From positions 1-56,471 of IMG/VR virus record IMGVR_UViG_3300027851_000033: DNA of 56,471 bases; one strand, 5' to 3'. Under the pieces are notes generated by a model, which saw only the letters and a program-made list of their open reading frames with translations, had not been told where the DNA came from and searched no databases. Position numbers and translations under genes: made by a program. Below are positions 51,394 through 56,471 of the stretch, in pieces. Source of the DNA: a virus. Its lineage: Duplodnaviria > Caudoviricetes. The stretch's first letter is position 1. Each line of letters begins with the position of its first letter.

Positions 51394-51647
51394 CGACCGT
51401 GACCAAGGAAATGATCGGCGCTGCGCATGACGTGACGCTCGAAAGTGGCGATGGACGCAGCGCGATGAAAACGTGTGCGACCTGCAACGCCAGCCACAAG
51501 AACACCGTTGAGCGCGTGCTGCGCTGCATGGGTTGCGTGGCAAAGCCGAGCGGCAACAGCAACTGGCGGCCATTGGTGCCTAACGATGCAGTTCAGGGGC
51601 GCGAGGCGGCCTTATCGGCGGAGCGTCCCTCTCGAACGCAGGGTTAG
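51390..51647 (+). CDS. Small Cys-containing protein whose 3' end reads through attC1
   Basis: CATC...CMGC; the C-terminus from PNDAV onward is attC sequence. Confidence 0.5.
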   Translation: MTTVTKEMIGAAHDVTLESGDGRSAMKTCATCNASHKNTVERVLRCMGCVAKPSGNSNWRPLVPNDAVQGREAALSAERPSRTQG

Positions 51648-51649
51648 AA
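51578..51649 (-). mobile_element. attC1 (72 bp)
   Basis: Minus: TTCTAAC-CCTGC-GTTCGAGA...CCTGAAC-TGCATC-GTTAGGC. Confidence 0.85.
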
Positions 51650-51732
51650 ATCATGGCGATAGTGAAAACTGGCGATTGCCCCTATTGCGGAGCGCCGAAC
51701 AAGCGCAAATGTTTTTGTAAACGGAGATCGAG

Positions 51733-51999
51733 ATGCAAGAACTACTGATGATGTACGACCCGGCAACCGGAATGCAAAAGCCCTACCCGAGCCACGCCGA
51801 GCAATGGCGGAAGTTTCACGGCGAGATGGCATGGCTGTTCAATCCTTGGACAGGCACAAGGCGGCACGCTCTTGATGTTGGTAGCGACACCTTTGGGCGT
51901 GGTATTCGCATAGAGGATTGCTTAGAGCGCGCGGCAGTGATGAGCCAAGCGCAGGGATCAAGCCAACAAATACGCGGAGGAATTCTCCGTGACGCATAA
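51733..51999 (+). CDS. Cassette A gene (88 aa)
   Basis: GGAG RBS; TAA stop lies in the next core site. Confidence 0.7.
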   Translation: MQELLMMYDPATGMQKPYPSHAEQWRKFHGEMAWLFNPWTGTRRHALDVGSDTFGRGIRIEDCLERAAVMSQAQGSSQQIRGGILRDA

Positions 52000-52075
52000 C
52001 GTAGAGCTAAGGGGCCGAGCCGCAGGCGAAGGTCCCGTGGAGCGAAGCGGAACGAACTTGAGCGCCGGGTTAGGC
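51994..52075 (-). mobile_element. attC2 (82 bp)
   Basis: Minus: GCCTAAC-CCGGC-GCTCAAGT...CCTTAGC-TCTAC-GTTATGC. Confidence 0.9.
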
Positions 52076-52098
52076 GGCGCAGACATTGGAGACAGCAA

Positions 52099-52350
52099 AT
52101 GAGACAACCTCACGAATTGATGGCAGATGACTATTGCGGACCCTCGAAAGTGATTAACTTGGGCCAGATTCAAAACCGCGATGGGTTCAGATTCATCGGT
52201 ATCGACAAGCACGGCAAAGAGCATTTTTGCATTGTCCGCAAGGGTGACGGCGGATCGTTTTACATGAACAGCAACACGGCGCTGTTTGAGGATTTGTGCG
52301 GATGGCTGCCCGATCCTGATGCGCCGACTTTTGGAGGTAGCGAAACATGA
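52099..52350 (+). CDS. Cassette B gene 1 (83 aa)
   Basis: GGAG RBS. Confidence 0.7.
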   Translation: MRQPHELMADDYCGPSKVINLGQIQNRDGFRFIGIDKHGKEHFCIVRKGDGGSFYMNSNTALFEDLCGWLPDPDAPTFGGSET

Positions 52351-52556
52351 GCATTCACGTTTGCAAATGCACTCACAACGGGCGCGAGGAATACCACCTG
52401 CGTTACCCCGGAATGACCGAAGCGGAGGCGCGAGAACTGGCCGACAGAATCAACGGCGGATGGCTCCGGCCACCAGAGAAGCCGAAGGGCGGATTGGCCG
52501 AAGCGGTCAAGATAGCAAGGGGCGGGGATGCACCGATACCGTTCAAGAGATCGTGA
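52347..52556 (+). CDS. Cassette B gene 2 (69 aa)
   Basis: GGAGG RBS and ATGA overlap. Confidence 0.65.
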   Translation: MSIHVCKCTHNGREEYHLRYPGMTEAEARELADRINGGWLRPPEKPKGGLAEAVKIARGGDAPIPFKRS

Positions 52557-52557
52557 C

Positions 52558-52635
52558 CCCTAACGCCGGAGTTAAGGCGGCTGCCGAAGGCAGTCCGGCG
52601 ACCGAAGGGAGCGAACCTTGAACGACTTGTTATGC
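52558..52635 (-). mobile_element. attC3 (78 bp)
   Basis: Minus: GCATAAC-AAGTC-GTTCAAGG...CCTTAAC-TCCGGC-GTTAGGG. Confidence 0.9.
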
Positions 52636-52755
52636 GCTGACGGTTACTGGTGCGTGGTTTGTGGGCGATACCTGCCCGACGATGACGGGGTGGTTGTTCA
52701 CGACGACGTGCCACACCCGGAGATGACTTTCGACGAAGAGGAAAGGCCGCAATGA
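52618..52755 (+). CDS. Cassette C gene 1 (45 aa, MNDLLCADGYWCVVCGRYLPDDDG...), start inside attC3
   Basis: GGGAG-6nt-TTG inside the attC; CxxC motif; ATGA overlap with the next gene. Confidence 0.5.
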   Translation: MNDLLCADGYWCVVCGRYLPDDDGVVVHDDVPHPEMTFDEEERPQ

Positions 52756-52946
52756 GCGAGAACGGAATTACCCACTACTGCCTCGGCAACGGGGAGTTGA
52801 AGTGCGACGGCTGCGGGCAGGAAAAGAACTGGCAGACGTTGAACCAGATGCCCGACGCGCTGCGGAAGACGCTGCAAGCGCAGGCGCAACGGATCGACGA
52901 CACCGACTGCATCCTGTCCGGGCGCCCGTGGTATGTGGGCGCATAA
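52752..52946 (+). CDS. Cassette C gene 2 (64 aa, Cys-rich)
   Basis: TAA stop lies in the next core site. Confidence 0.65.
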   Translation: MSENGITHYCLGNGELKCDGCGQEKNWQTLNQMPDALRKTLQAQAQRIDDTDCILSGRPWYVGA

Positions 52947-52996
52947 CGCTTGAATTCAGCGGCGGCGAAGCCGTCCGCTGGAATGATTAGTTGGGC
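52941..52996 (-). mobile_element. attC4 (56 bp)
   Basis: Minus: GCCCAAC-TAATC-ATTCCAGC-GGACGGCTTCGCCGCC-GCTGAAT-TCAAGC-GTTATGC. Confidence 0.92.
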
Positions 52997-53021
52997 CTCG
53001 ACGGCCCGGAAAGGAAACGAC

Positions 53022-55074: not shown

Positions 55075-55110
55075 GGCGTCTTACCAGCGCCGACTTTTGA
55101 AAGGGTGGTG

Positions 55111-55248
55111 ATGAAGCCATTTTTGATAGCTGTGCTGTTGTTCACTTCCGGCTTCGCCGTGCTGCTGTTTTTTATACTCTGGTGGGAACGCGGATTTGAT
55201 GGTGCATGGGCGACCTTTGAGCGATTCGCAGAGGATGTATTGAGATGA
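55111..55248 (+). CDS. Cassette I gene (45 aa, single TM)
   Basis: MKPFLIAVLLFTSGFAVLLFFILWW. Confidence 0.6.
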   Translation: MKPFLIAVLLFTSGFAVLLFFILWWERGFDGAWATFERFAEDVLR

Positions 55249-55249
55249 C

Positions 55250-55307
55250 GCCGAACGCCGAAATCACCGGCCGCCGGTAGGCGGTCCGGTGGATTGTGGA
55301 GTTAGGT
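55250..55307 (-). mobile_element. attC10 (58 bp)
   Basis: Minus: ACCTAAC-TCCAC-AATCCACC...GGTGATT-TCGGC-GTTCGGC. Confidence 0.88.
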
Positions 55308-55313
55308 TGCACG

Positions 55314-55367
55314 TTGATTGCTGTAACACAAATAATGCTTGACATGGCTTGATTGATGTATTACAGT
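55314..55367 (+). promoter_or_regulatory. Cassette J sigma70 promoter (TTGACA-17-TACAGT) with direct repeats TTGATTGnTGTAnnACA 35 bp apart
   Basis: -35 at 55339-55344, -10 at 55362-55367; repeats start at 55314 and 55349. Confidence 0.75.
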
Positions 55368-55415
55368 AACAACCATGCGATGCACGTTGCAGCGCAGACA
55401 ACCAAGGAGCCGAAA

Positions 55416-55715
55416 ATGCAAAACCTGACCGCCGAACAAATGATGCAGCGCCCGGAAGTGCTCGCGTACCTGAATGAGTTGGCGGCCGATATTGCGGCAC
55501 ATGGCGGCCTTGAAGGAAAGACGATGGAGCAAGCCGTACAAGAGGCGCACAACCGCCGCCAGTTGTTCGCGGCAGAGATGGTGTCCGGTGAGACGCGCCG
55601 CGCAAAGATGGCACGGAAGGCTATTTGCACGTCTGTTTGGATTGATGTGACCGTGCAGCACTCGAAGGAAAAAATGGTGCAGGCGTGCGAATGGATCGAG
55701 GCGGGGCGCGCATGA
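55416..55715 (+). CDS. Cassette J gene 1 (99 aa)
   Basis: AAGGAG RBS before MQNLTAEQ. Confidence 0.7.
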   Translation: MQNLTAEQMMQRPEVLAYLNELAADIAAHGGLEGKTMEQAVQEAHNRRQLFAAEMVSGETRRAKMARKAICTSVWIDVTVQHSKEKMVQACEWIEAGRA

Positions 55716-55897
55716 AGGCCAAGGCTCCACACGGAGGCCCAGGAAGGGGTCAAGGCCGCAAGCCACTGCCGGACGAGGAGCGCACCGTTGTTGTGACGGT
55801 GCGACTCACCCAAGCGCGGAGGGACAAGCTGCGGCGCTTGGGCGCGCACTGGCTTGCAAAGGCGGTTGATCGGGCGAAAGAGCCTGATGCAACCTAA
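55712..55897 (+). CDS. Cassette J gene 2, RHH-like paralog of 54210..54386
   Basis: HGGPGRGQGRKP...VTVRLT...LRRLG..WL; TAA stop in the core site. Confidence 0.75.
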   Translation: MKAKAPHGGPGRGQGRKPLPDEERTVVVTVRLTQARRDKLRRLGAHWLAKAVDRAKEPDAT

Positions 55898-55960
55898 CGC
55901 ATAGGTAAGCGGCCTTCGCCGGTCTTATGGCGAAGGTCGCGCTTGACCGCCGGGTTGGGC
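55892..55960 (-). mobile_element. attC11 (69 bp)
   Basis: Minus: GCCCAAC-CCGGC-GGTCAAGC...GCTTACC-TATGC-GTTAGGT. Confidence 0.92.
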
Positions 55961-55997
55961 GGCGTATCACCAGCACCGACTTTTGAAAGGGAACGAT

Positions 55998-56312
55998 ATG
56001 GCAACACAGAAGGAAGCAACGCTGCGGCTCTACACGGCCCTGAACGCACCGGCCAAAGCAGGCAGGGTGTGGGTGCAGTACGAGCGCAAAACCATTGACG
56101 CGGCACTGGATGTGCTGAAGCAGTTGATGGTGGCGCAGGGCTACGAATTCCGCCCGGCTGACGCGCTGCCTGCGGAGCGCGAGTGCTGCGGGACTTTCCC
56201 CGGCTCCAAACACCGGAGCACATGCGCGGCCAAGACGCCCAACGCAGAAGTGAGCCGATCTGCGCCGCTTTTGGCGCAGGTCGGCTCGACTGACGGGTTA
56301 GAGCGCGGTTGA
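55998..56312 (+). CDS. Cassette K gene, reads through attC12
   Basis: MATQKEATL...; CCGT...H..TC motif. Confidence 0.65.
   Translation: MATQKEATLRLYTALNAPAKAGRVWVQYERKTIDAALDVLKQLMVAQGYEFRPADALPAERECCGTFPGSKHRSTCAAKTPNAEVSRSAPLLAQVGSTDGLERG
56237..56303 (-). mobile_element. attC12 (67 bp)
   Basis: Minus: CTCTAAC-CCGTC-AGTCGAGC...GCTCACT-TCTGC-GTTGGGC. Confidence 0.92.
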
Positions 56313-56326
56313 CACGGAGAAAGAAC

Positions 56327-56471
56327 ATGACACCGGAAGAAGCTGACAAGGCACAGAACTGGCTCGGCATGGACGGAGCCACGGCTTGGCACTTGATAGA
56401 CCGGCACGCCGATAACTGGAATGAGGTGGGCGAGTTGATGAATTCCTGGCTACGGGCGAACGTCCTTGCAG
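56327..56471 (+). CDS. Cassette L gene, 5' part (MTPEEADKAQNWLGMDG...), continues at position 1
   Basis: GGAG RBS; open to the end of the window. Confidence 0.7.
   Translation, partial: MTPEEADKAQNWLGMDGATAWHLIDRHADNWNEVGELMNSWLRANVLA

Follow-up and report, generated by a model that had tools for sequence, protein, structure and literature searches.

The virus record IMGVR_UViG_3300027851_000033 (Duplodnaviria; Caudoviricetes), 56,471 bases long, rated 100% complete and analysed here in full as the window, is the whole genome of a temperate, P22-like phage that has a betaproteobacterium as its host, and at the end of its early operon lies an array of small gene cassettes. We find that this phage probably carries an integron platform that lacks an integron integrase gene (intI), made up of 12 cassettes, 12 attC sites and an attI-like site and moved by the integron integrase (IntI) of the host. 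In the mechanism we propose, each attC would fold as a single-stranded hairpin on the plus strand, the strand with the attC bottom-strand layout, and an integron integrase supplied by the host would cut its 5' AAC between A and C. The excised cassette would be a circle that opens with the C of the site on the left and closes with the AA of the site on the right, and circles would be inserted at the attI-like site. Excision and insertion of this kind would make the two ends of one cassette reverse-complementary and leave the two cores of an in-array site unmatched. The cassette genes would point toward attI and be read from the phage's own early promoters.

Hairpin sites with the anatomy of attC

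Twelve hairpin sites of 56–82 nt, S0 to S11, lie on the plus strand between 51578 and 56303. Their alignment with 9 sites from one relative gives a common plan: ...YAAC, then G and a 4–5-nt spacer, a stem, a variable loop, the return stem, a 5-nt spacer and GTT..., with the inverse core ...AAC at the 5' end and the core GTT... at the 3' end in 12 of 12 sites. The return stem, which is the 3' arm on the plus strand, has a bulged G 3 nt above the stem foot and, in most sites, a bulged T higher up. A covariance model, R1, was built from this alignment (A1) of 21 phage sites; its only matches in the window are the 12 sites, each of them in plus orientation. Outside its training set, R1 picks out the aadA1 attC of plasmid R100 at 50.6 bits (E 3e-10), on the strand opposite aadA1. 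AAC/GTT is kept in 113 of 114 aligned sites from 22 sources, and the L stem of these 114 sites, in an alignment itself fitted to R1, has compensatory changes in all 11 of its pairs, with 84.7% of cells paired compared with 29–48% when the partners are slid. A search of 50000–56471 against Rfam gave no matches. Judged by this anatomy, the repeats of the window are true attC-like sites, and the match of R1 to the aadA1 attC supports the proposal of an earlier sequence-only reading that the array is the footprint of integron-type cassettes.

The layout of the bulges also sets the strand. On the coding strand the aadA1 attC has an extra C and A in its 5' arm; on the bottom strand these become a G and a T in the 3' arm. 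According to passages of PMC5027507 (Nivina et al. 2016), the folded bottom strand is the one that the integrase recombines: AAC is cut so that its A and C part, and the arm opposite carries the extrahelical bases. Because the bulges of the phage sites are laid out as on the aadA1 bottom strand and in keeping with this rule, the phage plus strand is the attC bottom strand, and the exchange point is AA/C at the 5' end of each site, equivalent to G/TT on the minus strand. The G/TT integration point of the sequence-only reading thus holds for the minus strand; on the plus strand the crossover is AA/C at the 5' end of the sites. A plus-strand crossover at G/TT, with each attC owned by the gene on its left, had been suggested by the likeness of S6 and S10, which follow the paralogous cassettes F and J. 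It was ruled out: the genes that S1 and S3 accompany from contig to contig are those to their right, near-identity ends at AAC, and the R1 strand test gives the opposite orientation.

Cognate ends of the cassettes

A cassette is counted here from the C of the AAC on its left up to the AA on its right. Its ends were compared from the core (GTT...) at the start and the inverse core (...AAC) at the end: the first bases match the reverse complement of the last perfectly over 4 nt in A, 6 in B, 9 in C, 4 in D, 9 in E, 10 in F, 11 in G, 10 in H, 8 in I, 11 in J, 8 in K and 10 in L, so that 9 of the 12 cassettes keep perfect ends of 8–11 nt. These are the end-to-end matches on which the sequence-only reading was built, and all its values were reproduced exactly. 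The permutation test that it had proposed gives a true sum of 100, a value that none of 200,000 random re-pairings reaches (mean 54.1, sd 6.0, max 88). Identity at end positions 4–11 is 75 of 96, compared with a shuffled mean of 46.8 and maximum of 70 (0 of 200,000 reach 75). The two cores within one in-array site match poorly, with a sum of 46 as against 100, and its statement that they mostly do not match is borne out.

The second check proposed, circularisation in silico followed by folding, was run on the plus strand with DNA parameters and 12-nt arms. Sites rebuilt from the circles have a summed energy of −280.1 kcal/mol, compared with −220.8 kcal/mol for the in-array sites and a mean of −230.6 kcal/mol for shuffled rebuilt sites (sd 7.4, best −271.6); none of 100,000 shuffles reaches −280.1. 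The true partner gives the best fold among 13 candidates for 7 of the 12 cassettes and the second best for H and L, which have one common core. Of the two outcomes that the sequence-only reading had named as refuting it, neither is seen: shuffled pairings match less well than the true ones, and the reconstituted sites fold better than those in the array.

The attI-like end and its counterpart in bacterial integrons

Cassette L is followed by ...AAC G TAAAGTAGACACC and then by the stop codon of the phage integrase gene. A relative, L001, reached through a neighbouring gene, has its own ten-site array that ends AACG AGAAGTAGACCCC, and the array-terminal motif can be written AACG..AAGTAGAC.CC. 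Scanning viral contigs for AACGNNAAGTAGACNCC gave at least 119 loci; among the motif matches listed, 33 of 119 viral loci have R1 sites, and there the motif stands beside the arrays, either at their 3' end on the model strand or, in L034 and L091, inside the array. In the latter two it occurs as tandem 30-nt units (three copies at 3666–3755 of L034; 4868–4900 of L091), each with AACG at its start and an inverse core at its end. These units look like empty insertion events or attI x attI products.

The same motif is found in bacteria. A scan of bacterial genomes with a stricter pattern returned 46 loci, of which by our own estimate ~17 are expected by chance; the non-chance loci belong to Betaproteobacteria (Ca. 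Accumulibacter, Pseudoduganella, Azonexus, Thiobacillus, Methylotenera, Rugosibacter, Nitrosospira and others). R1 sites are present at 21 of the 46. In 15 of the 46 the motif lies 145–182 nt before the start of intI on the same strand, with a full-length intI in 8 of these 15, and in all five such genomes tested IntI scores above the curated cut-off (462–488 bits). The order array, motif, intI along the bottom strand is that of R100. Since the motif precedes intI in hosts and the order is that of R100, we take the motif to mark the attI of betaproteobacterial chromosomal integrons. The 17-nt motif at 123–139 of the window matches the one upstream of bacterial intI, and by this motif the phage array ends in an attI-like site of host-integron type. 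The attI-like end of the sequence-only reading is thereby upheld; it lies beside the phage integrase gene at the start of the record. In three loci (L141, L150 and L168; Accumulibacter and Rhodocyclales genomes) what comes after array and motif is an intI cut short after 38 codons, with the break at the same residue in all three.

The integrase gene next to the phage motif is of another kind. No match to the integron integrase profile TIGR02249 was found in the record, tblastn with host IntI gave nothing, and the window integrase has only weak XerD-like scores. By these scores it is an ordinary phage enzyme and not an integron integrase. No relatives of it were found among the viral contigs. 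Arrays are also present in two related viral records, of 41 kb and 62 kb and each rated complete, that have no tyrosine recombinase (PF00589 protein) at all.

Direction of the cassette genes

The 12 cassettes hold 17 small genes. To assign their direction we used a codon-usage score trained on the long genes of this phage, counts of longest open reading frames being noisy. The coding strand is the plus strand, the model or bottom strand, in 10 of 11 scored window cassettes; L, which wraps over the record ends, is left out. Of 90 cassettes at 14 viral loci, 69 have their gene on the model strand and 2 have it on the other strand, while 19 are undecided; the corresponding figures for 46 cassettes at 12 bacterial loci are 14, 31 and 1 (Fisher p 4e-15, viral versus bacterial). 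In L165, where the array adjoins an intact intI, the usual direction is found in 4 of 5 cassettes. The phage cassette genes are therefore inverted relative to the textbook form: they lie on the attC bottom strand and point to attI, and the canonical direction, with the gene on the attC top strand and pointing away from attI, is not the one seen in the window.

Database matches of the cassette genes are few. Pfam assigned no family to 15 cassette proteins, and in a PHROGs scan that also took in the integrase and two genes upstream, 16 cassette proteins gave a single match of unknown function, that of the first gene of cassette F to phrog_34498 (E 2e-25). This gene has relatives in Burkholderia phage Mica and Ralstonia phage RSM3. 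In a collection of isolate phages near relatives amounted to only 5 short matches, 69–70% identical, to one cassette gene. Cassettes F (53769–54386) and J (55301–55897) are paralogous and hold several genes; each has a good plus-strand promoter match (TTGACA-17-TACACT/TACAGT, at 53801–53829 and 55339–55367), and the last small protein of each begins with a common GPGRGQGRKP stretch. Cassettes I and K have their first ~38 bases in common (55068–55105 and 55954–55991; GTT.GGCGGCGT...CCGACTTTTGAAAGG) and then diverge.

Shared cassettes in different contexts

Arrays of this family are present on at least 33 other viral contigs, and some cassettes of the window recur there. Cassette D, the first part of B and cassette L are 95–100% identical in L069, L041 and L048, respectively, with different neighbours and in backbones only 69–79% alike. 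D is nearly identical in L069 from mid-S3 to the AAC of S4, and one other cassette separates it there from the motif; B's first gene recurs in L041 together with most of S1 at 96% identity; and L matches L048 at 100% over 254 nt. In these shared cassettes gene and left-hand site move as one unit, and the AAC on the right is where near-identity stops. After the AAC of cassette L comes an ordinary attC in L048 and the attI-like motif in the window, which agrees with the polar insertion from the attI-like end that the sequence-only reading had proposed.

Contigs from four independent metagenomes have parts of the array in other contexts, and S9 is found between other contents in metagenome contigs. 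One metagenome contig joins R'' of S3 to R'' of S5 and so is without D and E; its short side is 25 nt, which makes the joint weak. Parts of the array that metagenome contigs left uncovered were not counted as evidence. In 20 public runs from 12 studies (freshwater, groundwater and aquifer metagenomes) 21–99% of the sampled words of 51300–56471 are present, and with this range of coverage the cassettes are therefore widespread and variably combined.

The distal end of the array

The array does not begin at 51643, where the sequence-only reading had set its start, but with S0 at 51578, and it does not stop at 56471, since cassette L runs past the record end to window position 124. Left of S0 lies a degenerate former cassette, or more than one, without a left site: 50904–51445 is a complete cassette in L001, with ends matching over 10 nt, and 51446–51585 is cassette content in L104. 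A siteless former cassette at this place fits decay at the distal end, the sequence-only reading having held that end matches decay away from the attI-like end and that the imperfect A, B and D, all far from it, suggest older or fused cassettes.

Of these three cassettes, B is a fusion. The first of its genes has in L041 an inverse core of its own, which matches the start over 12 nt, and the window's B is without that inverse core, the following site and the leader of the next cassette; the second makes up a cassette by itself in L034 and L082. The leader piece common to I and K also occurs at the fusion point inside B (52330–52345), which suggests a deletion between short repeats. D has the same 6/7 ends in L069; it is imperfect wherever it is found, so that the mismatch belongs to the cassette itself and says nothing of its age or place. 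In A, the content from 51661 onward has a different left side in two metagenomes, which gives only a hint that its left end was replaced. By position alone, 2 of 220 arrangements of imperfect cassettes are as extreme as that of the window. End match and position correlate with rho −0.23 (p 0.027) over 13 arrays and with rho −0.19 (p 0.09) over the 12 arrays (81 cassettes) without the window. Decay with distance is plausible as a weak trend, but it is not the reason for all three imperfect cases.

Weighing the explanations

Several observations weigh against a platform moved by host IntI. The window encodes no IntI, and the movement of cassettes is deduced from sequence comparisons. No host could be identified for the phage, the best relatives of its integrase in 401 genomes of the order being 57–59% identical. 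Of the attI-like site the window retains just the portion adjoining the crossover: the second inverted arm (GGTG...), present in many relatives and hosts, is missing, the end of the phage int gene replacing it, and the site may be crippled. On their left, shared cassettes have blurred limits, placed variously at AAC, some 10 nt further in, close to the tip of the hairpin or within its 3' arm, and two BLAST matches continue to the G/TT of the right-hand site, at much lower identity. Such blurred left edges and hybrid sites, which occur with badly pairing arms, are not predicted by standard single-strand integron exchange. Finally, the R1 E-values are rough, and the covariation alignment was itself fitted to R1. 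One possibility for the hybrid sites is that the RecT system of the phage acts on short conserved stretches. Between shared cassettes or metagenome contigs, homology often begins near the left hairpin tip, as in S1 (about 52031–52037), S3, S7 (about 54749) and S11 (about 56272) and in matching sites of L069, L044 and L091.

The absence of IntI from the phage, the truncated attI-like site, the fused or hybrid distal cassettes and the one cassette without a left site would all be expected if the array were a dead relic, that is, a piece of a host chromosomal integron (array and attI) taken up by illegitimate recombination, its matching ends being fossils; passages of PMC9892861 (Qi et al. 2023) report fragments of chromosomal integrons in Vibrio phages. 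We consider this unlikely. A plain copy of a host array would not have its genes on the opposite strand (69:2 on the model and opposite strands in phages versus 14:31 in hosts), and a relic accounts poorly for arrays at 33 or more viral loci, including the two complete records without a tyrosine recombinase, for cassettes of 95–100% identity in different contexts, or for perfect ends kept in 9 of 12 cassettes. The blurred left edges would fit shuffling by the phage itself, in which the hairpins would be short homologies for RecT and exonuclease, or targets of the phage integrase, and no integron integrase would take part: RecT and a YqaJ-type exonuclease are encoded just upstream of the array, left edges of homology lie at several points within sites, and hybrid sites joined near the hairpin tip occur in other contigs and in metagenomes. 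Homologous exchange within the sites, however, cannot make cognate 8–11-nt cores that differ between cassettes, and it leaves unaccounted for the sharp right-hand edges at AAC and the tie of the attI motif to intI in hosts. The phage integrase was rejected as the cassette recombinase: it has no IntI similarity, arrays exist in complete phages without a PF00589 protein, and the likely attP of this ordinary phage enzyme is on the other side of int. We therefore regard shuffling without an integron integrase as quite unlikely.

The hairpins lie on the coding strand and hence in the early transcript, between genes, where they could serve mainly as RNA signals for processing, stability or termination, their likeness to attC being convergent. 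That is very improbable: R1 finds a true attC on the expected strand at its rough E of 3e-10, the arrays end in an attI-like site of host-integron type, no T-runs follow the stems, terminator-like structures number 6 as against 7.6 expected by chance, and Rfam has no match. An additional RNA role of the hairpins may exist. With these alternatives weighed, we favour an intI-less platform served by host IntI. The sequences show how the sites are built and on which strand, where the attI-like site lies, that IntI is missing from the phage and present in the hosts tested, and that the same cassettes occur in different contexts; that host IntI is the enzyme and that the site of this phage still works, we infer.

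The surrounding phage genome

Genes of the window code for a P22-type portal, a capsid protein, a large terminase, an S24 repressor, RecT, a YqaJ-type exonuclease, SSB and a tyrosine integrase. The record can be joined to a circle: the frame of the last cassette gene stays open from 56471 to 1, and the independent viral contig L048 spans this junction with two 127-nt blocks of 100% identity and 3 extra bases between them. An AT-rich stretch upstream of int (1148–1420), with repeated GTGCA(C) motifs and a piece resembling a tRNA 3' end (about 1307–1326), lies on the side of int away from the array and is likely to be attP. ARAGORN found no tRNA genes in the window. Beyond it, 1424–15271 of the minus strand is a single frame of 4,615 residues with ddrB-ParB, Eco57I-type methylase and SNF2 helicase domains and a weak RelA/SpoT region, a set of domains typical of the giant 'polyvalent' anti-restriction proteins that phages and plasmids encode. 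Coordinates of the array and its flanks are collected in Table 1.

Table 1. Array features and adjoining elements in window coordinates. For each site, A is the first A of AACG and G the G of GTT.
Feature	Coordinates	Strand	Landmarks	Basis
Degenerate former cassette(s) left of S0, without left site	50904..51583	+		Cassette content in L001 and L104
S0	51578..51649	+	A 51582 (AACG); G 51643	R1 57.4 bits, E 7e-12; hairpin fold; distal array end
S1	51994..52075	+	A 51998; G 52069	R1 44.5 bits
S2	52558..52635	+	A 52562; G 52629	R1 39.0 bits
S3	52941..52996	+	A 52945; G 52990	R1 53.0 bits
S4	53369..53431	+	A 53373; G 53425	R1 45.1 bits
S5	53697..53775	+	A 53701; G 53769	R1 47.0 bits
S6	54381..54449	+	A 54385; G 54443	R1 65.5 bits, top score
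S7	54707..54778	+	A 54711; G 54772	R1 51.4 bits
S8	55004..55074	+	A 55008; G 55068	R1 53.7 bits
S9	55250..55307	+	A 55254; G 55301	R1 51.8 bits
S10	55892..55960	+	A 55896; G 55954	R1 61.3 bits
S11	56237..56303	+	A 56241; G 56297	R1 60.6 bits
Thirteenth half-site	119-126	+	AACG, first A at 123	Seen on joining record end to start
Cassettes A-L	51584..56471	+		End matches; open reading frames with ribosome-binding sites; codon score
Cassette starts A-F		+	A 51584; B 52000; C 52564; D 52947; E 53375; F 53703	
Cassette starts G-L		+	G 54387; H 54713; I 55010; J 55256; K 55898; L 56243	
Cassette L end, wrapping over record ends	1..124	+		Frame open from 56471 to 1; L048 spans junction
attI-like site	119..139	+	Cassette-derived core ending AA, then C G TAAAGTAGACACC	
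Phage tyrosine integrase (int)	149..1147	-	Convergent with array	PF00589 E 2.5e-15; phrog_1 E 4.5e-43

The place of the array on the map has a counterpart in lambdoid phages, in which an accessory ('moron' or ea-type) region of small variable early genes lies between the recombination genes and int. The window likewise has small variable early genes of unknown function at this place; unlike the lambdoid region, its units are bounded by site-specific recombination sites and not by plain mosaic joints.

Discussion

The phage sites share with integron attC (59-base elements), as exemplified by aadA1 of In2/Tn21 on R100, the R'' and R' boxes with AAC...GTT, the L stem, the bulged G and T opposite AAC, unpaired spacers of 5–6 nt, a variable loop, the pairing of the start core with the end core and the order attC then attI on the bottom strand. 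Unlike the aadA1 cassette, the phage genes are on the bottom strand, and their cognate cores are mostly 8–11 nt as against 6/7 for aadA1 by our own reading. The R100 integron further differs in that no intI stands beside the phage attI-like site and expression driven by the cassette promoter Pc is not expected here. The closest cellular counterparts are the betaproteobacterial chromosomal integrons (Ca. Accumulibacter, Pseudoduganella, Rugosibacter), which have the same attC type by R1, the same attI motif and the same order of array, motif and intI; unlike the phage array, they encode IntI, and the top strand holds the gene in most of their cassettes (31 of 46).

The array is not a complete integron, in which intI lies beside attI, the neighbour here being the phage integrase. 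With 12 attC sites and no IntI in the whole 56.5 kb record it belongs among the clusters of attC sites lacking integron integrases (CALINs), and the feature is a CALIN-type, intI-less integron platform in a phage. Its cognate cassette ends are the classical integron footprint, and phage attC clusters as such were already published in 2023 (PMC9892861). Passages of that paper describe 17 attC clusters in 10,705 genomes, each with at least two sites and, like the array of the window, in phages without IntI; some of these phage sites recombined with attI1 under IntI1. The same passages give the usual gene direction for two phages, unlike in the window, and larger clusters may be listed in the paper's supplementary tables. 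Set against the clusters described there, the window has 12 sites, a retained attI-like site of host type, uniformly inverted genes and a family on at least 33 viral contigs. The word 'Betaproteobacteria' is absent from the main text of PMC9892861. Our literature searches returned no account of phage arrays with a retained host-type attI or uniformly inverted genes, or of this betaproteobacterial family.

Integrons are regarded as bacterial devices. It was only in 2023 that clusters of attC sites were reported from phages, and then as rarities. The array of the window is long, comes with an attI-like insertion site of host type and belongs to a family found on dozens of viral contigs. The direction of its genes suits phage transcription, and identical cassettes move between divergent phages. 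If host IntI drives this movement, phage early genes would undergo site-specific exchange by a stress-induced host enzyme, and integron cassettes could pass between phage and chromosome. The array is also a clean system for studying cassettes on the 'wrong' strand. As a tentative further step, about which we are less than evenly confident, a widespread lineage of betaproteobacterial phages may keep a private pool of 'antisense' cassettes with their genes on the attC bottom strand, inserted at a phage-borne attI of host type and moved in trans by host IntI, with the phage thus shuffling early accessory genes that may serve in counter-defence. If this is true, phage cassettes would stay silent in host integrons, as would host cassettes in the phage, owing to the inverted gene direction.

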